The translations under genes and the position numbers were made by a program. Shown here piece after piece: positions 17,972-41,596 of a stretch of DNA of 64,000 nt (positions are counted from its first letter, which is position 1; each line of letters opens with the position of its first letter). The DNA comes from Coriobacteriaceae bacterium (GTDB lineage Bacteria > Actinomycetota > Coriobacteriia > Coriobacteriales > Coriobacteriaceae). The DNA lies in NCBI GenBank assembly GCA_902835305.1, contig CADFMD010000002.1:63374-127373 (forward strand). The letters are read 5' to 3'. The notes below the pieces were generated by a model, which saw only the letters and a program-made list of their open reading frames with translations, did no database searches and was not told the DNA's origin.

Positions 17972-18048
17972 TGGTAGCCCGTACCAGATTCGAACTGGTG
18001 ATCTCCGCCTTGAGAGGGCGGCGTCCTAAACCGCTAGACGAACGGGCC
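17972..18048 (-). tRNA. tRNA-Glu (anticodon CUC)
   Basis: Cloverleaf folded by hand: GGCCCGT acceptor stem, anticodon arm CCGCC/cuCUCaa/GGCGG, TTCGAATC T-loop, encoded CCA. Confidence 0.8.
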
Positions 18049-18065
18049 ATATGTAGCAAATGCAA

Positions 18066-18139
18066 TGGCTGGGATGGAGGGAGTCGAACCCCCATTGACG
18101 GAACCAGAATCCGCTGTCCTGCCATTAGACGACATCCCA
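18066..18139 (-). tRNA. tRNA-Gln (anticodon CUG)
   Basis: Acceptor stem TGGGATG/CATCCCA, anticodon loop uuCUGgu, GGTTCGACT T-arm, encoded CCA. Confidence 0.75.
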
Positions 18140-33498: not shown

Positions 33499-33721
33499 GG
33501 TAGGACTCCTTATTGGTCAGGCGCTGGTTACCGATCAGCGCATAAGGCGTCTTGGTTTCCGACCAAGACAACAAACTCGGCTATGGTACCACGGCGCCGC
33601 GCGTCCCACAAAAGGTTCACGGTCTTTTCGGAACGACACGAATCTGACCCATCGAAACACATCTCCACCGTTCCTTCAACTGGGAAAATGCCGTCCCCGG
33701 GGCCTGAGAAGGGCCCCGGGG

Positions 33722-33786
33722 ACGTTCGACTGACTGCGGGAACGGCCTTTCCGCTCAATGTGTTCGGCTGAGATCGGAAATCAACC
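33722..33786 (+). repeat. 65-bp direct repeat, copy 1 (left boundary of the 33.8-41.4 kb islet)
   Basis: 62 of 65 nt identical to 41351-41415: (a/g)cgttcg(a/g)ctgactgcgggaacggcct(t/g)tccgctcaatgtgttcggctgagatcggaaatcaacc. Confidence 0.85.
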
Positions 33787-33865
33787 AAACTGAACTAGGT
33801 TCAGTTGACATGGTTAAAAACGAGGGGCGACGCTTTTGCGTCACCCCTCGTCCCGGCCGGTTGCT

Positions 33866-34219
33866 TTAGTTGTACACACGGTAGTTACACTTGAACTGGG
33901 TTATGTGTCCATAGTTTGAGCCGTACCAACCCGATGTATAGCTGATTGCCTCTGCGCCTAGATAGTCGTAGCCCTTGTTGTAGCGAAGCTGACGGTAGGT
34001 CGTGTCGTACTCTGCTACGTAAAACGTGTCTCCAGAGAAGGCTTTGTACCGGTCCTTAACCGTCGAAGCCATGTACGCGGGTTCGACATCGCCTTTCTCC
34101 CCGTTGAGCGCATAGACGGGTGCCGCGATTCCGCATAAAGCCGTTGCCACGAGGATGGCGTAGACAGCCATGCGCGACGCATTGGACTTCAGCTGTTCAA
34201 ATAGTTTCATGTCATTCAC
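33866..34219 (-). CDS. Small secreted Tyr/Gly-rich protein (signal peptide plus ~85-aa mature part); candidate bacteriocin-like peptide
   Basis: N-terminal hydrophobic h-region ending ..PVYA; mature part YNKGYDYLGAEAISYTSGWYGSNYGHITQFKCNYRVYN; overlaps the upstream permease gene by 8 nt. Confidence 0.6.
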   Translation of the reverse strand: MNDMKLFEQLKSNASRMAVYAILVATALCGIAAPVYALNGEKGDVEPAYMASTVKDRYKAFSGDTFYVAEYDTTYRQLRYNKGYDYLGAEAISYTSGWYGSNYGHITQFKCNYRVYN

Positions 34220-36026
34220 CTCCCTCGTATGTATCGAGGTATTCCTGCTTGAGCGTCTGCGAGGACGACTTGATCTTTTCCACGAGCGTGCCGGCCTCGA
34301 TGAAGTAGAACGAGTTGGTGAGGTCTGCCAGGTCGTCGAGCAGATGGCTTGAAATGAGCACGCTTCGTCCCCGCGCCACCTCGCTGCGCATCGCGTCGCA
34401 GGAGGTTTTCCGCTTTCCCGGATCGAGGCCGTTCAGCGGTTCATCGAGGATGAGGTACGGGCAATCGGTCGATATCGCCATGGCAAGCTTTACCTGCTGC
34501 TTCATTCCTGTCGAGAGTTTACGGGTCGGCTTGTCGAGATATGGGGAGATTCCGAGGGAGTCGCAGAGCGAGTCGATGTCGGCGGCCGATTTCCACGCCT
34601 CCCTAACGAAAGCAAGGTGCTCGATGGCCGATAGCGTGGGATAGAGATCCGCGCCGCCCGAAGAGCTCAGGTAGACGAGTTCTGCAAATTCGGCTGATCG
34701 ACGTTGGCAGATTCCGTCTGCCGCCAGGCTTCCCGAGCGGATGCGGGCGGGAAATTGGCCCGACAGCGCTTCAAGAAGGGTGGTTTTCCCCGAGCCGTTG
34801 GGAGCAACGAGGCCCGCCGCCGTTCCCGGGCTCAGGAAAAGCGACCCGATTGAAAGTATCGTCGTGCTTCCGTATCCCACGCTCGCGTCCAGAAGCTCGA
34901 GCCCATGGTGCTTTTTCGCGGGTCCGGGCTGTTTGGGGGAACGTGTCGCAACGGCGCCGACCGCAAAAAAGACCGCGACGTATGCCAGGGCCACGGCAAG
35001 CATCGATGCGCTGCCTGAACCGGAGCCGATGAATTCTGTCGGGAAGCATCCTACGTAACCCGTTGCCTCGATAGGCGAGAATACGGCCAGCGGCAGGAGA
35101 TTGAGCGCGGCGTTATGCTCCAGTGCCGAATCGGACAGTAACGGGAATGCCGGGGCCGCGACAAGCAGCGCGGAGGTAAGGGGGCCCGCGAGGACGCGCC
35201 TCGTTGCGGTCGATAGGACGGCGGAGCAAACGGATATCAAGGTTCCGCCCGCAAGCAGCGCGAGAAGCAGGGCTGTGAAGACGTTTCCCGCGGTCGTGGT
35301 GGTAAGCGCGCCGTCATGGAAGAAGGCGATCGGGTACCCAATTTGCCCGAAGCCGTTTAGGGCCAAGGCGTAAATGCCCCCGGGTGCGAGGCCGGCGAGG
35401 AGCATCGCGGTCCCCGCGGCGATTATCGAAAACACGATCTGGATAAGGCGCCGGAATTTGGGCACGGGCGCCTTCGCCGCCAGGGTCGCAGGCCTTGTGG
35501 CCCCGAGCAGGAGTATCGACGAGAGAAGGAAGGGAATGAAGGGAAGGAAAGACGGCGCCGTGGCAATGGCGTAAGGCAGGAAGGAAAGGAATGGCAGGTC
35601 GTTTGCGGAGGCCGGGATATCCGTGATGCCGGAACTGCTCAGGGCACGGCAATATGCGAGCGCCGCGTCATTGGTCTCTCGGTCTCCCACGATGGACCCG
35701 GATTGGAAGCCTTCGCCCATGAGCGCGTAGTAGCTCTCGGCAGAATCGAGAAAGGCGGCGTCGGTTTGAGCGGCAAGGGCGGCGTTCGCGTATCTTGCAA
35801 GCTCCGCGTCGACTTGCTGCTCTGGAGATAGGTCTGTGCCGCTGGCCTGGGGCGCGCGCGTATTGAATGCGTCGACAAAGCTCTGCATGCCCTGTTTCAT
35901 AAAGAAGGGCCCGTAGATGGGTGAATTGAACGCAATGGGGACGGAAAAGGCTGCAGCGAGAACGAGCGTACAAATCCATACGGCCTTGTCTCTTAGGATT
36001 AGTTTGAGAAGAAGTCGACAGTACAT
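34212..36026 (-). CDS. Fused polytopic membrane protein (~390 aa) plus ABC ATPase (~210 aa)
   Basis: N-terminal half with multiple TM helices; C-terminal Walker A GLVAPNGSGKTT, signature LSTGMKQQ, Walker B LILDEP. Confidence 0.75.
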   Translation of the reverse strand: MYCRLLLKLILRDKAVWICTLVLAAAFSVPIAFNSPIYGPFFMKQGMQSFVDAFNTRAPQASGTDLSPEQQVDAELARYANAALAAQTDAAFLDSAESYYALMGEGFQSGSIVGDRETNDAALAYCRALSSSGITDIPASANDLPFLSFLPYAIATAPSFLPFIPFLLSSILLLGATRPATLAAKAPVPKFRRLIQIVFSIIAAGTAMLLAGLAPGGIYALALNGFGQIGYPIAFFHDGALTTTTAGNVFTALLLALLAGGTLISVCSAVLSTATRRVLAGPLTSALLVAAPAFPLLSDSALEHNAALNLLPLAVFSPIEATGYVGCFPTEFIGSGSGSASMLAVALAYVAVFFAVGAVATRSPKQPGPAKKHHGLELLDASVGYGSTTILSIGSLFLSPGTAAGLVAPNGSGKTTLLEALSGQFPARIRSGSLAADGICQRRSAEFAELVYLSSSGGADLYPTLSAIEHLAFVREAWKSAADIDSLCDSLGISPYLDKPTRKLSTGMKQQVKLAMAISTDCPYLILDEPLNGLDPGKRKTSCDAMRSEVARGRSVLISSHLLDDLADLTNSFYFIEAGTLVEKIKSSSQTLKQEYLDTYEGGE

Positions 36027-36179
36027 TTGGAAGCACCTACGTTCCTCAAAGAATCGTTAGATTAAAAGTAACAGACCGGATGAAGATACGTGCGACGGGG
36101 GCGAGGCGAATGGCTGAGCGGTATCGATACGCGGGTTCAACGGTATCACATTGGCCACATAGATTTTTAACTTGCATTT

Positions 36180-36929
36180 CTACCCGCCCTTTTCGTAGAG
36201 TCGCCGATACGTGCTTAGCGCACCCTCGGCGCGTCCGGCAGGCTTTGCGAAATGGGATCCAGGAGACTTCGGCGCAGCATCATCTTGCGGAATGCTTCTA
36301 ATGAGCCTCCCATCCTTCAAAAACAGAATCTCATCGCACAGCCTATCGACCGAATCCAAGATGTGGGATGACATGATGATGCACGTACCAGAATCGGCCA
36401 GCTTCCTGAGAATCTCGGAATGCAAGTCCACCCTGCTGGGGTCGAGCGCGTTCATGGGCTCATCTAATAGAAGGTACCGCGCGCCCGTCGCATACGCAAT
36501 CGCCAGAGTAAGCTGCTGCTTCATGCCCTGGCTCAGAGTGCGGATCCTCATCTTCGCGAACTCGCCTATCTGCGTTTGTTCCACTATCTCTTCGATATCG
36601 CGAGCATGCGGCCACATATCGCAAACCATCTTGAGGTGATCTTCCGCACGCAATCCGGGATACAGCAGCGTCCCCTCACCAGGTGCATAGAAGATCATAG
36701 AACGGACCTCTCTCGCACCCGTACCCTGCACCTCATCCAGAACGATGCTCCCGTCCACGCGAGGACCCGGCAAACCTGCCATCGCACGCAGCAACGTCGT
36801 CTTTCCATGCCCGTTCGGAGCGACGAGACCGTAGACCGTACCCGGGGCAAACTCAGCGTTCACCGAATCTACGAGCACCTTCTTTCCATAAGAGATCGTC
36901 AGCGTTTGAAGGTCAATCATCGAGATCAT
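36180..36929 (-). CDS. ABC transporter ATP-binding protein
   Basis: Walker A GLVAPNGHGKTT, signature LSQGMKQQ, Walker B LLLDEP; overlaps the upstream permease stop by 4 nt. Confidence 0.85.
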   Translation of the reverse strand: MISMIDLQTLTISYGKKVLVDSVNAEFAPGTVYGLVAPNGHGKTTLLRAMAGLPGPRVDGSIVLDEVQGTGAREVRSMIFYAPGEGTLLYPGLRAEDHLKMVCDMWPHARDIEEIVEQTQIGEFAKMRIRTLSQGMKQQLTLAIAYATGARYLLLDEPMNALDPSRVDLHSEILRKLADSGTCIIMSSHILDSVDRLCDEILFLKDGRLIRSIPQDDAAPKSPGSHFAKPAGRAEGALSTYRRLYEKGG

Positions 36930-39214
36930 CCCCTTTCGATCTTTGGAACACTCAGGCGCACCATCAACGGAGATACGGCGCCCAAGACCACCAGCAGAGC
37001 GCCCGATGCGCCGACGACCTCTCCAAAAGGCATCGCGTTCGTCCCTCGCCCAAGGAACCCAATCGTCCCCACCTGGGAAGCGGGATCAAACGAGGCGAAT
37101 GGAGCCAGCAGCGCGACGCCCATGCCCACGCTTTCAACATGAGCGCTCAACGAACCCAACACCAAGAGAACCGCGCAAACCATTCCGGTGACAACGGGGT
37201 TGCGGCTAATCGCTGCTGTCAACGCAGCGACGACGGAAATCACGCCGTATGCCATGACCAGCAACGGAATACTGCACAACACCGCCTCCCCCACCATGGA
37301 CGTTGTCGAAGCTCCCGCCCGAATGAGAGCGACGGGATACTCCGATCCACCCGCACCGTTCTTAATCACGGACACAACGACAGCGGGAACCATCGACACC
37401 AAAAGCAGCACCAAGCCAAGCAGGAGAGCCAGCGCAACAGCCGTCAGAAAACGCACATGCGCTGTTGCGGGGATCTGGAGAACCAGAAGGGAACGACACT
37501 GCAGGTGGGTGCACGCGAGCGATGTGACAACCACGGGCAACAGCAAAAATAAGGAGGGAAGCGCTGCCTGGAGATACGAAAGGAGGATTAATGGGGGCAT
37601 CTTCGTACTTAACTCGTAAACCTTGGGGTCCGGCAAGCTCGCGATCGACTCAAGCAGAAGGGCGCGCGCCTCCGCACGAGAAGGAGTCTCCGGCTCGATT
37701 CCAATCGATTGCAGGAGAGTCGCATCTGCCGCGCCCAGCTCACCTCGAGCGCGCTCGTACGTCGCAAGGCTTCGAAACCCCTCCGCAGGCATAGGCGCGT
37801 ACACGAAACCCGAAAGAGCATCCCGCATGTCTTCCAGGGCCGCTTTGCCCTCGACGTCCATATTCGCAGCGTTCTGCTCTAGATACCGATCTATTGAACG
37901 GAGCTCCCCATCCCTATACCGAACAGCGGAAACGTTATCAGCGTCAGGAAACATCTCGACCAGAGCCGGGGCCAGCATCGTCGTCGACATTGCAATCGCG
38001 CATACGGCGAGGGTAGGAGAACGCAGGAGCAGTTTCCCCATCGTTCTTACGTATGCAACGGCGGAGGCACAAGCGCTCGAACGAGTTGCCGTTCTCGATG
38101 CAGTGAAGGAACCTCTCTCAAGACAAATCGGGGATATCGGGCACGCGCAGCCGCTCTTTCCAGCAACGCAAAGCAGGCTAATTGCCAGCACCTCGATCCC
38201 GATTGCGCATACGAGGGCAATCGCGCCACGCTCGAAGCAAAGTCCAGGCAGATTCACTATCTGCGTTGTCGGGTACGGGCTATAGGCGCCGACGGTCAAC
38301 TCAGTGTTCGCATACGTAAGGGGATTCAACAGGGCGAACTCACGTAAAGCGATGGATCTTCCGTAATACCCGGGAACCATCGTCACCCCCATCAGGGCAC
38401 ATACGAACACGATTCCAAGCGTAGGGTTATTGGCAATCTTCACGGCAAGGTGAACGACAAGCGAGATGAACGCTGCCACCAAGAATTGCAAGATGGCCGT
38501 CTGCGCGAACACCAGCCAAGCCGGTTTGATAACCGGAGTCGCATATTGAATGTAGCCTATCGGATAGAACGGCGAGCCCGGGCCATTCTTCACAAGCGCG
38601 GCGATTATCCCTGGAAGATTGATGGCGAGGACGGCAAGCATTGCAAAAACACTCGCCCATACGCTCGATGCAACAAGTCTACCCAGCTCGCCCATCGGTG
38701 CCTGGATGATGAGCTTTTCACATTTGTTAAGACGCGCGGCAAGGAACGAGACGGCAACGGCCGTTGCGACCCATAGCAAGTACTCCTTCGATCCGTCATA
38801 ATAGGTGTACTCTCCATCCGATATCTGCAGAAACGGAAGTAGGGGAGAGAGCGGTGCCAAGATAAGACGTCCCGCGGCAAGAGGGTACAGAAGCGCGGGC
38901 ATGCTTGATGAAGAGGTATAGACACCGTCCTCCCCCGCATTCACAAGCGCATCCGCATAGGATGCTGACAATTCCTGCTCAACACGGGTTATTCCCGACT
39001 CGAGGTATTCGACCCGTCCGTCGATGCCAGCCGCGCTCCTGAAGACGGGCAGAGCACAAAGAACCATCAACGCAACAACGACAACACAGAGCGACCTGGA
39101 GGAGAGAAGCGACCTAAAGATCGCCTTCGAGATTTTGAGCATATTCATCGCCAACCTTAACCTCATCCAGTCGGAACAGAGGGGCCGAACAAAATGCTCG
39201 GCCCTTCCTCGCAT
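36926..39214 (-). CDS. Large polytopic membrane protein (762 aa, internally duplicated) of the kind found as immunity/permease partners in lactococcin-972-type loci
   Basis: Two similar halves, each with an N-terminal TM, a soluble region and a multi-helix bundle; no nucleotide-binding motifs. Confidence 0.65.
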   Translation of the reverse strand: MRGRAEHFVRPLCSDWMRLRLAMNMLKISKAIFRSLLSSRSLCVVVVALMVLCALPVFRSAAGIDGRVEYLESGITRVEQELSASYADALVNAGEDGVYTSSSSMPALLYPLAAGRLILAPLSPLLPFLQISDGEYTYYDGSKEYLLWVATAVAVSFLAARLNKCEKLIIQAPMGELGRLVASSVWASVFAMLAVLAINLPGIIAALVKNGPGSPFYPIGYIQYATPVIKPAWLVFAQTAILQFLVAAFISLVVHLAVKIANNPTLGIVFVCALMGVTMVPGYYGRSIALREFALLNPLTYANTELTVGAYSPYPTTQIVNLPGLCFERGAIALVCAIGIEVLAISLLCVAGKSGCACPISPICLERGSFTASRTATRSSACASAVAYVRTMGKLLLRSPTLAVCAIAMSTTMLAPALVEMFPDADNVSAVRYRDGELRSIDRYLEQNAANMDVEGKAALEDMRDALSGFVYAPMPAEGFRSLATYERARGELGAADATLLQSIGIEPETPSRAEARALLLESIASLPDPKVYELSTKMPPLILLSYLQAALPSLFLLLPVVVTSLACTHLQCRSLLVLQIPATAHVRFLTAVALALLLGLVLLLVSMVPAVVVSVIKNGAGGSEYPVALIRAGASTTSMVGEAVLCSIPLLVMAYGVISVVAALTAAISRNPVVTGMVCAVLLVLGSLSAHVESVGMGVALLAPFASFDPASQVGTIGFLGRGTNAMPFGEVVGASGALLVVLGAVSPLMVRLSVPKIERG

Positions 39215-39592
39215 CTAGTAGGTGCTATAGACAAATTGCCATTTATCAGTTGTGCCAAGAACACCACAGGAGCACATTGCAGCGAGGCGGGATTCCCTAT
39301 GATGCGCGGATCGGCGATAGCCATTTCGGTAGGAGATCGTCTTGTAAGAGATGTTGAACATCGAGATGCTGTGCCCGCTTACGCCGCGAGGACAGCTGTA
39401 GCTCCAGTAGGTATCGACGACGTCGTCCGTATACCCGAGGGGCTCAACGAGGGCACACTGGCTGCTCTCCTGGGAAGGAGGCATCGGGGTATCCGCAAAA
39501 GCGGGGGCTCCCGGCAGCAACAGACAAAGAGCGAGGCCGAGGAAAACCAAGAGCTTACACGACTTAACAGTACTGAACATAATCCTCTCCAA
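39215..39592 (-). CDS. Small secreted Cys/Tyr-rich protein (signal peptide plus ~95-aa mature part); candidate bacteriocin-like peptide
   Basis: Signal peptide LLVFLGLALCLLLPGAPAFA, then a mature region with 5 Cys and many Tyr/Trp; lies directly 5' of the 762-aa membrane protein gene. Confidence 0.6.
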   Translation of the reverse strand: MERIMFSTVKSCKLLVFLGLALCLLLPGAPAFADTPMPPSQESSQCALVEPLGYTDDVVDTYWSYSCPRGVSGHSISMFNISYKTISYRNGYRRSAHHRESRLAAMCSCGVLGTTDKWQFVYSTY

Positions 39593-39698: not shown

Positions 39699-40213
39699 TT
39701 ATGAGTTCCGACAATCGCACTCCCCGGCTTCATTCCTTCCGCATCGCATGTGCGATAGCCTCTGCGACCCTTTGCGCCACCGCCATCGCACAAGTGGCGT
39801 TCTCCTTAAAGCCAGCAATCGAAGTGCTCGACAACCCTGTAATTGCAGACTCCCCCGCGTATCCAGCCCTTGCGATCTCGACATTGGTCCCTGCCGTCAT
39901 CGGTATCGCTACGACCATCCTCAGCGCCGTTCTCGTGTGGACGATCAAGAGCGGAGACCCCTTCAAGAAAGGGTCTGCGACATGCTTGAAGGTGCTCGGC
40001 ATTCTCTTCGTTGTTCAAGCTGCCACCAGCCTCTACGCCGGCTCACTCAAAACCTCCGTTTCGATGTTTGGCGGCGAGGGGGCCGTCGGCGCCCAAGAGA
40101 TCGCTTCATCATTCGATTGGACCTCTCTGGTTCTCGGCATCGTCCTGTTCATGCTTTCCCAGCTCTTCTTGTACGCCCGAGAGCTGTACCTCGACTCCGA
40201 CGAGATTGCGTAA
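39699..40213 (+). CDS. DUF2975-type membrane protein, the usual partner of YozG-like HTH regulators
   Basis: Four TM helices in the characteristic arrangement; followed 9 nt later by the XRE regulator. Confidence 0.6.
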
Positions 40214-40222
40214 GGAAACGCC

Positions 40223-40474
40223 ATGCCCGTAATTGTTCGCCTCGACAAGATCATGGCCGAGCGAAAGATTTCCTCGAACGAACTTGCCGAAAGGATTGGA
40301 ACCACGCCCGTGAACCTGTCCCGTATTAAAAAAGGGCATATTCGCGGCATTCGCTTCAACACACTCGAGCAGCTATGCCTCGCCCTTCGTTGCCAACCCG
40401 GAGACCTTCTCGAAGTCATGAGCGAAGAGGATGCCCGAAAGGAGTTCGGACTCGATTGGTCCGCCGAGGATTAG
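40223..40474 (+). CDS. XRE-family (YozG-like) helix-turn-helix transcriptional regulator
   Basis: MPVIVRLDKIMAERKISSNELAERIGTTPVNLSRIKKG..IRFNTLEQLCLAL matches the YozG consensus. Confidence 0.85.
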   Translation: MPVIVRLDKIMAERKISSNELAERIGTTPVNLSRIKKGHIRGIRFNTLEQLCLALRCQPGDLLEVMSEEDARKEFGLDWSAED

Positions 40475-41200
40475 AGGGCGGTCGTACTCGCCCTGCACAC
40501 GGGGATGCGAATCGGCGAGGTCTGCGGCCTTCGGTGGTGCGATGTGGATTTCGAGACGGGCCTGATCTCGATCAGACACTCGGTGGCGTACGCGAAGGGA
40601 ATGGGTTCGTTCATCAAGGACACCAAGACCCATGACGCCAGGGGTATCCCCATCGACCCGGTCGGCCTACTCCCCTTCCTGAAGGAGACCCACGAGATCG
40701 ACTGCGGAAAGCTGCGCTTGCGCGGCCTTACCGGGGCGGTCGAGATCGGGGACTGCTACATCCTGTCGGAGCCGGGCGCGACCTTCGCGACGACAAGCTA
40801 TATCCGCAGGGCGTTCAAGACGTTCTCGGAGACCAACGGCCTCATGGGCACCAACGACGAGCTGATCACGTTCCACGGCCTTCGCCACACGTTCGCAACG
40901 CAGTGGATCCGCCAAGGCGGCGATATCAAGGCGCTCCAATCGATCCTCGGCCACAAGGACGCCATGGCGACGCTCAACGTCTACGCCGACATCGAGCCCA
41001 TCTCCAAAATCCATAACATGCTGCGCGCCACGCCGTGCCTTTGGCGCGGGCACCTCGGGCCGAGGGTCGATCCGGGTCCCATGTTCCAACAGAGGATCCA
41101 GGAGTCCATCGAGACGCTCCAGGCGTTCGGCTACGGCATCACCGAGCCGGACGACCGAAATATCGCCATACGCGACGTGAAGACGAACAGTTGGCTCTAG
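40475..41200 (+). pseudogene. Tyrosine recombinase (phage-type integrase), catalytic domain only; the N-terminal ~150 aa are missing
   Basis: ALHTGMRIGE (Arg I), HGLRHTFAT (H-x-x-R), LGHKD, ATLNVYAD (Tyr nucleophile); reading frame continues straight from the XRE gene across a single TAG at 40472-40474. Confidence 0.75.
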
Positions 41201-41350
41201 CTCACCGAGTACGCGGCAGTGCTGGGCCCATCCCAACTGAGGTCACGGTGGTCCGATAGGGGCGCCGCCCGCGGCATGCGCCGCGGAGCGGTATCCCCTA
41301 CCGAAGGGCGGGGATGCCCTCCGCTTCCAGTTCGGAATCAGCCGTCGGAG

Positions 41351-41415
41351 GCGTTCGGCTGACTGCGGGAACGGCCTGTCCGCTCAATGTGTTCGGCTGA
41401 GATCGGAAATCAACC
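41351..41415 (+). repeat. 65-bp direct repeat, copy 2 (right boundary of the islet, 150 nt past the integrase remnant)
   Basis: See 33722-33786. Confidence 0.85.
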
Positions 41416-41596
41416 CAACACGAGCCGGACACGCGCCAGACGGCTCTTCCCCGTGCGGCCTTCCCCCTTACGCTCATGTTGCAGGCATGTAACGCCGCAG
41501 CGAGCGCGCCTTTTTTGCGCCAGACAGGTACAATGATGAACACTGTACCGTAGCGGAGCGCCCCGCGCGCGCCGCAATCACGCGAAAGGGTTTCCC

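Follow-up and report, generated by a model that had tools for sequence, protein, structure and literature searches.

Two paralogous cassettes of small signal-peptide-bearing proteins and ABC-2-like exporters in a Collinsella islet, with a tentative reading as bacteriocin-like proteins and their immunity pumps

Between rpmE and an ACT-domain gene of Collinsella (C. aerofaciens group), the host context of the DNA examined here, lies a 7.6-kb islet that carries two paralogous three-part cassettes. The islet falls within a 64,000-nucleotide stretch (the window) of contig CADFMD010000002.1 from a Coriobacteriaceae bacterium, and each cassette joins a gene for a small protein with a signal peptide to the permease and ATPase domains of an ATP-binding cassette (ABC) transporter: sp1, mem1 and atp1 in module 1, fus2 and sp2 in module 2. 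New here are an uncurated family of ABC-2-like exporters and a conserved, unannotated family of secreted proteins, which travel together in Coriobacteriia. Our preferred interpretation, to which we would give somewhat less than an even chance, is that sp1 and sp2 are bacteriocin-like proteins secreted through Sec, each with a matching ABC-2-type exporter for immunity, and that the cassettes are analogous, not homologous, to the loci of lactococcin 972 (Lcn972), the family to which a reading made from the letters alone (the sequence-only reading) had assigned them. Within this interpretation, we infer that the small proteins are secreted with cleavage of the signal peptide, that they are antimicrobial and that the pumps confer immunity.

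All five open reading frames (ORFs) of the sequence-only reading are confirmed on the minus strand, but the starts of sp1, mem1 and sp2 probably lie slightly downstream of those chosen originally, as gene calls on dozens of assemblies and the Shine-Dalgarno positions favor the shorter forms. Module 1 is an operon that begins with sp1 (39215-39580, ATG at 39580), which follows a GGAGAGG Shine-Dalgarno sequence and encodes a 121-residue precursor, previously given as 125. Its type I signal peptide would be cleaved between AFA and D to leave a mature protein of ~92 residues with 4 Cys, 8 Tyr and an isoelectric point (pI) of ~7. The next gene, mem1 (36926-39148, ATG at 39148), encodes a 740-residue double permease, formerly drawn as 762 residues extending to 39214. 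Its proposed internal duplication is borne out, since the two halves match one another at BLASTP E=8e-5, and hydropathy indicates 6+6 transmembrane (TM) segments, a tandem duplication of a 6-TM unit. Both halves are, in addition, similar to the first ~370 residues of fus2 (E=1e-10 and 0.008), and an NG-G---YP motif is common to both halves and to the fus2 permease domain. The 4-nt overlap (36926-36929) between mem1 and atp1 (36180-36929) is upheld; the latter encodes a 249-residue ABC ATPase (ABC_tran, 1.7e-21).

In module 2 permease and ATPase are joined in fus2 (34212-36026, minus strand), a 604-residue half-transporter with an N-terminal 6-TM ABC-2-like permease and a C-terminal ABC ATPase (ABC_tran at residues 395-532, 1.3e-18). 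By hydropathy, the permease unit of fus2 and of both mem1 halves consists of TM1, a loop of 100-130 residues and then ~5 further TM segments, and by the positive-inside rule the large TM1-TM2 loop is assigned to the exterior and the ATPase domain of fus2 to the cytoplasm. The atp1 and fus2 ATPases are 35% identical. Both membrane proteins are abundant in public data, the 90%-identity clusters of the 740-residue mem1 and the 604-residue fus2 having 14,132 and 26,235 members, respectively. Downstream lies sp2 (33866-34210, minus strand), whose ATG at 34210 is served by a GGAGGTGA Shine-Dalgarno sequence and whose precursor is 114 residues long, not 117 as first given. The 8-nt overlap described between fus2 and sp2 exists only if sp2 starts at a GTG; with the ATG start the two genes are separated by a 1-nt spacer. 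The sp2 signal peptide, also of type I, would be cleaved between VYA and L, leaving ~80 residues with 13 Tyr, 8 Gly and a pI of ~7.

The proposal that both small proteins carry signal peptides therefore stands, with mature forms of 92 and 80 residues. As read from the residues, both signal peptides have a positively charged n-region followed by a hydrophobic core, and neither contains a lipobox, for which reason we rejected the possibility that sp1 and sp2 are lipoproteins. The statement that the two mature proteins are unalike is essentially right: BLASTP with the signal peptides included gives E=0.016, hhalign a probability of 6.6% and a hidden Markov model (HMM) comparison E=3.2, a similarity that is weak and non-significant. 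A spurious ORF is ruled out for sp2, with 24 distinct alleles, a ratio of nonsynonymous to synonymous polymorphism (pN/pS) of 0.48, below 1, and conserved homologues elsewhere. It is rejected for sp1 on weaker grounds, namely its Shine-Dalgarno sequence, its signal peptide and the presence of the exact sequence on at least 1000 contigs; the sp1 pN/pS of 0.74 comes from few substitutions and is uninformative. Among 5.8 billion proteins, sp1 matched only sequences of at least 91% identity over the aligned stretch (usually at least 95%) or rearranged variants, so that by sequence it appears to be restricted to Collinsella. In one public record sp1 is labelled automatically as an "Ig-like domain-containing protein"; all other proteins of the locus are "hypothetical".

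The transporters belong to a family that an exhaustive profile search among 1.84 billion proteins resolved into 204 cluster representatives of the permease, in three forms by length: a single transmembrane domain (TMD) of ~370-400 residues, a fusion of TMD and nucleotide-binding domain (NBD) of ~600-645 residues, and a double TMD of ~725-880 residues. No Pfam or NCBIfam model covers the TMD of this family, and the permease profile found nothing among PDB sequences. Of 40 family members, three gave weak matches to ABC2_membrane_3 or ABC2_membrane_2 (best E=9e-4) and two matched GldF. The ATPases score best against the NCBIfam models for lantibiotic protection (TIGR03740), NodI and DrrA, with PSM-export also among the closest, yet their scores (E 1e-31 to 6e-36, 110-124 bits) fall far below the cut-offs of 310-420 for TIGR03740, NodI and DrrA. 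On these comparisons the transporter appears to be a remote, uncurated ABC-2-like exporter and not an Lcn972-type 7-TM protein. Two distant fusion-type relatives, L120:1843-5743 and L118:2254-4904, adjoin radical-SAM enzymes. The neighbors of the former are a 161-residue ORF, a 472-residue protein with a faint PQQ_2 match, a Fer4_12/radical-SAM protein and a DUF2975-like membrane protein, and this setting may be that of a peptide-modification cluster with an exporter of the same family.

Distant relatives of the transporter are also followed by relatives of sp2. In the loci L109-L111, a single TMD is ~25% identical to that of fus2 and the NBD 36% identical, and a 116-residue ORF that overlaps the end of the ATPase gene is an sp2 homologue, with 55% identity over the precursor and ~65% over the mature part (60-65% with L113). 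The latter locus has a fusion-type relative that is likewise followed by an sp2 homologue, and 35 of the 80 mature sp2 positions are invariant across the three lineages (window, L109 and L113). We conclude that "ABC then sp2" forms a conserved cassette and that fusion is among the normal forms of the exporter family. The sequence-only reading had regarded both the fused permease-ATPase and the trailing small gene as atypical; neither is, the fusion being found also in P0117, P0119, P0128, P0134 and P0141. The fusion-type locus of C. tanakaei (L114) keeps only the 3' end of an sp2-like gene, another independent loss, L115 is a degenerate locus with a truncated ATPase, and in L116 the downstream ORF is without a signal peptide. 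It is important to point out that word-indexed homology searches with sp1, sp2 and mem1 gave almost only near-identical Collinsella sequences and missed the 55%-identical sp2 homologues, which were found later through genomic context; an empty result from such searches is therefore no evidence of orphan status.

For the double-TMD form, the metagenome scan for mem1 relatives recovered a single outgroup lineage. The nearest double-TMD clade comes from Coriobacteriaceae metagenome contigs (L089-L095; for example L089:5001-9341), with a permease 28% identical to mem1 and an ATPase 47-51% identical to atp1. The gene order there is LigA, an FNT-type channel, the double-TMD permease, the ATPase, a lipoprotein of ~300 residues and then EngB, and the locus is paralogous to the one in the window. 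Comparison of the lipoprotein with sp1 and sp2 found no relationship.

Clusters of the Lcn972 type combine a Sec-dependent small secreted protein with a large polytopic membrane protein and an ABC ATPase (PMC12345188), and the sequence-only reading had taken the two modules for members of that group. The gene logic is indeed analogous, but homology at the family level is not borne out. Neither sp1 nor sp2 matches Lactococcin_972 (PF09683, TIGR01653) at E<=1, nor do the sp2 homologues of L109 and L113 match the Pfam model at that threshold. Searches of PDB sequences, 2LGN included, with phmmer and hmmsearch returned nothing for the small proteins, and hhalign of each against the 2LGN sequence gave probabilities of 0.05% and 0.12%, the mature Lcn972 sequence used for profile comparison having been validated against that PDB entry. 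The membrane proteins, with 6+6 TM segments in mem1 instead of seven, depart from the family as well: mem1 and fus2 show no match to DUF1430/bact_immun_7tm (PF07242, TIGR01654), and DUF1430/TIGR01654 was likewise not found in 40 distant family members. AlphaFold2 models of mature sp1 and sp2, built from shallow alignments, are all-beta with a mean predicted local distance difference test (pLDDT) score of ~45, a low confidence; Foldseek comparison of these models with PDB gave no match at E<=0.001 and did not list 2LGN, the models being too poor to decide. As far as sequence and topology go, this is largely the outcome that the sequence-only reading had itself named as speaking against its assignment. 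Its statement that the family was not known to have been characterised in high-GC Actinobacteria needs correction, since Lcn972-like bacteriocins have been reported from an actinobacterium, Bifidobacterium longum subsp. infantis (PMC12648112).

Whether the small genes and the pumps are kept together was assessed in a survey of ~90 loci within Collinsella, in which insertions and deletions were scored from the distances between flanking anchors. Most loci are the best 80 of at least 513 candidate stretches with a mem1 relative from a scan of species-representative genomes, mem1 being 100% identical over the best segment; nearly all of these 80 records are titled Collinsella, including C. aerofaciens, and a few Coriobacteriaceae bacterium or uncultured bacterium. 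A second sample, unbiased with respect to the islet, consists of 10 long contigs chosen through rpmE, among them the complete genome CP048433.1 (L096). In the mem1-selected loci with both anchors, the sp1 slot measures 582 bp in 38 loci, where the gene is present, and 164-165 bp in 45, corresponding to near-exact removal of the ORF; at 195 bp, L011 represents an independent deletion. The sp2 slot measures ~792 bp in 32 loci (present) and ~260 bp in 13, where the cassette is replaced, ~45 nt of other sequence standing in for sp2, the terminator and the left flanking repeat, and at 475 bp L010 has an internal ORF deletion. All four combinations of presence and absence are seen. In the rpmE-anchored sample sp1 is intact in 0 of 10 contigs and sp2 in 6 of 10, with one more truncated copy; the module 1 transporter genes are found in 7 of 10 (mem1 frameshifted in L105) and fus2 in 9 of 10, seven full length and two shortened (L100 and L102).

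Taken together, transporters without their small gene number 51 for module 1 and 16 for module 2. An intact sp1 beside a broken transporter, on the other hand, was seen in 0 of 36 loci, and an intact sp2 beside a non-intact fus2 in 1 of 37, the exception being L001, in which TMD and NBD are simply encoded by separate ORFs. Three loci without module 1 (L097, L102 and L001) have a deletion from which the 3' end of atp1 is spared. Its junction was mapped directly in L001, where window position 41371, in the right flanking repeat, is joined to 36399, in the 3' end of atp1, and the spacing in L097 fits the same event. Genes for an IS1595-type transposase and a RelB antitoxin have entered at this junction (L001:6265-7960).

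The two modules also differ in diversity. Synonymous diversity is 0.05-0.09 in the ACT gene, rpmE, fus2 and sp2, whereas it is 0.004-0.014 in duf2975, sp1, mem1, atp1 and int, values that are depressed for module 1 because the Collinsella loci were ranked by identity to mem1; an exception is hth, at 0.046, which lies between duf2975 and int. The step between module 1 and module 2 is roughly 10-20-fold. Independent support comes from contig ends: in 39 of 80 loci derived from metagenome-assembled genomes (L007-L086), the contig ends ~70-2000 nt after the atp1 stop (window ~34200-36110), 17 of the 39 within the atp1-fus2 spacer, as expected from mixed strains. A second deep allele of module 1, without sp1 (L087:8043-11011 and L088:1267-4235), has amino acid identities of 80% for mem1 and 86% for atp1. 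The first ~300 residues of its mem1 are at least 90% identical to the window allele, and identity drops to 33% in the linker and 68% in the C-terminal TM bundle, a concentration of divergence that indicates a recombination mosaic. The sequence-only reading suggested that the modules were possibly acquired independently, but the sample is compatible also with later recombination within one islet. Cassette genes show pN/pS of 0.25-0.6, and core genes on either side of the islet 0.01-0.04.

If sp1 and sp2 are bacteriocin-like, the general Sec pathway would export them, and they would be released as beta-rich proteins of ~9-10 kDa; the AXA signal peptides and the missing lipobox suggest that they are probably released and not anchored. 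They would then act on the envelope of related bacteria in the manner of unmodified, Sec-dependent class IId-like bacteriocins. In module 1 the exporter would assemble from the TMD-TMD protein mem1 and two atp1 NBDs, and in module 2 from a presumed homodimer of the TMD-NBD half-transporter fus2, to which sp2 would be translationally coupled. These ABC-2-type exporters would serve as immunity pumps that expel or remove the protein from the membrane or wall of the producer, a role modelled on that presumed for LanFEG-type and Lcn972-cluster transporters. Strains that lose the toxin gene would keep the pump and with it resistance to toxin-producing kin. Small genes that are repeatedly lost while pumps are kept, and that are essentially never found alone, fit what is predicted of a bacteriocin with an immunity transporter, as does an unanchored secreted protein in an accessory islet under relaxed or diversifying evolution. 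Predicted Sec-dependent gut bacteriocins have a median core of 73 residues and a low net charge, and sp1 and sp2 lie within their range of size and charge (PMC12648112).

Several observations weigh against this interpretation. Neither small protein has sequence similarity to any known bacteriocin family or a confident structure, and the mature proteins are near neutral, with their pI of ~7, and not cationic. Few broken transporters occur among the loci, giving the test that a toxin is never found without immunity low power, and the asymmetry of presence and absence would arise just as readily with sp1 and sp2 as optional accessory subunits of a pump. The better conservation of sp2 than of its transporter is unusual for rapidly diversifying toxin/immunity pairs. 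Two distant loci, L106 and L118, have no small gene beside the transporter, and the lipoprotein that trails the nearest double-TMD relatives, with an LAGC lipobox and no Pfam family, recalls accessory immunity proteins of the LanI type.

That last resemblance is central to a second explanation, in which the exporters pump out antimicrobial peptides or other envelope-active compounds of external origin, for resistance or detoxification, and sp1 and sp2 are optional extracellular accessory proteins, comparable to LanI or NisI beside LanFEG. In its favor, the LAGC lipoprotein takes the place that a partner protein would have, and sp2 is linked to its transporter by translational coupling as well as by joint conservation across lineages. 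Loss of the small genes leaves the transporters in place, the best-scoring ATPase models are those of lantibiotic protection, and the family travels with a membrane protein and an HTH protein, a pair that might act as a sensor of envelope stress. However, an accessory protein with a cleavable type I signal peptide and no lipid anchor would diffuse away, and repeated clean loss suggests that the pumps do without the small proteins. Furthermore, sp2 is 55-65% identical between lineages in which the outside loops and TMD of the transporter are only ~25% identical, which argues against a tightly co-evolving partnership and points to a conserved external target, not its own pump, as the site of sp2 action. 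We regard this explanation as unlikely, though it deserves to be kept in mind.

The small proteins could instead be envelope, adhesion or signalling proteins without an antagonistic role, linked through a shared envelope function to exporters that move an unrelated substrate such as a lipid, glycolipid or wall component. Envelope polymers are common substrates of ABC-2 exporters, small proteins that are Tyr-rich, beta-rich and near neutral could pass for surface or matrix proteins as easily as for toxins, and the automatic Ig-like label on sp1 points the same way. Strain-level presence and absence, an islet with an integrase remnant and elevated pN/pS are nevertheless typical of accessory conflict loci, and among the window ORFs Pfam revealed no linked glycosyltransferase or envelope-biosynthesis genes, which leaves this account with a small probability. 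It is quite improbable that sp1 and sp2 are extremely diverged members of the Lcn972 superfamily, that is, beta-sandwich proteins that bind lipid II, with the transporter replacing the DUF1430 protein. Their size, Sec dependence, all-beta prediction (at pLDDT ~45) and aromatic C-terminal strand are similar, and mediterrocin, a family member, keeps the same predicted fold with as little as 18% identity to Lcn972 (PMC12345188). Yet the HMMs that detect members at 18% identity give nothing here at E<=1, the hhalign probabilities are 0.05-0.12%, and 2LGN is not among the Foldseek matches, poor as the models are.

Compared with known systems, the cassettes share with the class IId clusters of Lcn972 and mediterrocin a Sec-dependent precursor of ~90-125 residues that yields an unmodified, beta-rich protein of 66-92 residues, an adjoining large polytopic membrane protein and ABC ATPase thought to serve immunity and not export, and a small regulator within a mobile or variable stretch of DNA (PMC12345188, PMC7248182). 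They differ in that the small proteins have no sequence relationship, a 6-TM ABC-2-like unit, either duplicated or joined to the ATPase, stands where those clusters have a 7-TM DUF1430 protein, and the small gene of module 2 trails the transporter instead of leading the operon. Exporters of the LanFEG, BcrAB, NodIJ and DrrAB type resemble those of the islet in the best ATPase scores, in a 6-TM permease with a large first outside loop, in the weak matches of a few distant members to ABC2_membrane_2, ABC2_membrane_3 and GldF, and, if our interpretation holds, in immunity by expulsion. Scores far below curated cut-offs, a TMD family without Pfam or NCBIfam model and the absence from the window of linked biosynthesis genes for lanthipeptides or other ribosomally synthesised and post-translationally modified peptides (RiPPs) set the islet apart from them. 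The pneumococcal blp locus is known for an orphan-immunity ("cheater") polymorphism of bacteriocin loci. As there, immunity and transport genes are kept and toxin genes are variably deleted among strains of a species complex, but the double-glycine leaders, peptidase-domain transporter and quorum-sensing two-component system of blp are not found here.

The borders of the islet are marked by 74-nt direct repeats at 33717-33790 (left) and 41346-41419 (right), which are 93% identical, are spaced 7629 bp apart and gave no credible non-coding RNA match in Rfam. The left copy is a putative att remnant and is missing together with sp2 in the cassette-replacement variants (the sp2-minus loci L016 and L054), whereas the right copy is present in all island-bearing loci. 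Either form, with the left repeat or with ~45 nt of unrelated sequence in its place, may be the ancestral one. The G+C content is 0.54-0.59 inside the islet and ~0.63 outside. Adjoining the right repeat is a truncated tyrosine recombinase of 231 residues (40505-41200, plus strand), which retains the catalytic domain only (Phage_integrase model positions 36-168 of 172). Its pN/pS is 0.90, and the fragment is apparently decaying; truncation and neutral evolution indicate that the element is probably immobile now. Flanking repeats, an integrase at one end and variable occupancy of a fixed chromosomal site, which is occupied differently in L097, L102 and L104, are all features of an integrated island, and a clean empty site was not recovered among the loci examined. 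The islet is thus an old integrated element, now probably immobile. Beyond it, an L31-Coriobacteria ribosomal-protein leader (33506-33541, minus strand; Rfam 35.1 bits against a gathering score of 33) just upstream of rpmE assigns the window to Coriobacteriia.

In one Collinsella genome, L104 (L104:1-9830, upstream of rpmE), the islet site holds a different element that lacks the 74-nt repeat. Its genes include those for a UvrD-type helicase, a PD-(D/E)XK nuclease, an N6/N4 DNA methyltransferase and a TnsA-like protein, along with several ORFs without a Pfam match; the element may be a defence or transposon island. Elsewhere in the window, adjacent genes for tRNA-Glu(CTC) and tRNA-Gln(CTG) at 17972-18139 (minus strand) are unrelated to the islet.

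Two genes diverge from the sp1 operon on the plus strand. One encodes a 170-residue, 4-TM, DUF2975-like membrane protein (39701-40213), whose match to DUF2975 (PF11188) at E=3.2e-4 and 21 bits is below the 27-bit cut-off. The other encodes an 83-residue transcription regulator of the HTH_26 (Cro/C1) type (40223-40474; PF13443, 4.9e-21), at 75 bits well above a cut-off of 22. Membrane proteins that resemble the DUF2975-like protein, themselves without a Pfam match, adjoin distant family members in L112 and L120, followed in L112 by an HTH_26 gene, and the two proteins probably control expression. An anti-phage defence system was considered and rejected, as PADLOC gave only generic, partial matches to ABC ATPases and HTH proteins. 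A GC-rich hairpin with a T run directly follows the sp2 stop (33815-33849, minus strand), reading GAGGGGTGACGC-AAAA-GCGTCGCCCCTC-GTTTTT, and is likely the intrinsic terminator of module 2; a consensus terminator scan does not list it and flags a second hairpin at 33806-33788. A stem-loop in the spacer that separates sp1 from mem1 (39182-39204, minus strand; centroid hairpin -18.4 kcal/mol) is shown by junction alignment to be kept in sp1-deleted variants. The 91-nt stretch as a whole reaches a z-score of only -1.6, which is weak evidence, and an attenuator or mRNA stabiliser is possible.

Collinsella, among the most prevalent actinobacteria of the gut, is a very common human gut genus that has been linked to several diseases, the locus is present in thousands of assemblies, and literature searches turned up no Collinsella bacteriocin. 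The broader proposition is that the sp2 family, possibly sp1, and the uncurated ABC-2-like exporters form a conserved toxin/immunity cassette in Coriobacteriia, with pumps nearly fixed and toxin genes variable among Collinsella strains, pointing to within-species warfare and a new class of unmodified bacteriocin; we hold it tentatively, and doubt it slightly more than we believe it. If the small proteins are toxins, the islet would define a new bacteriocin family together with a new immunity-transporter family, and producer, immune-only and naive strains would be available naturally for the study of strain-level competition in the gut. If they are accessories of the pumps, it would instead define a new three-part ABC-2 exporter architecture. 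Under either reading, the TMD family and the sp2 family merit curated models.

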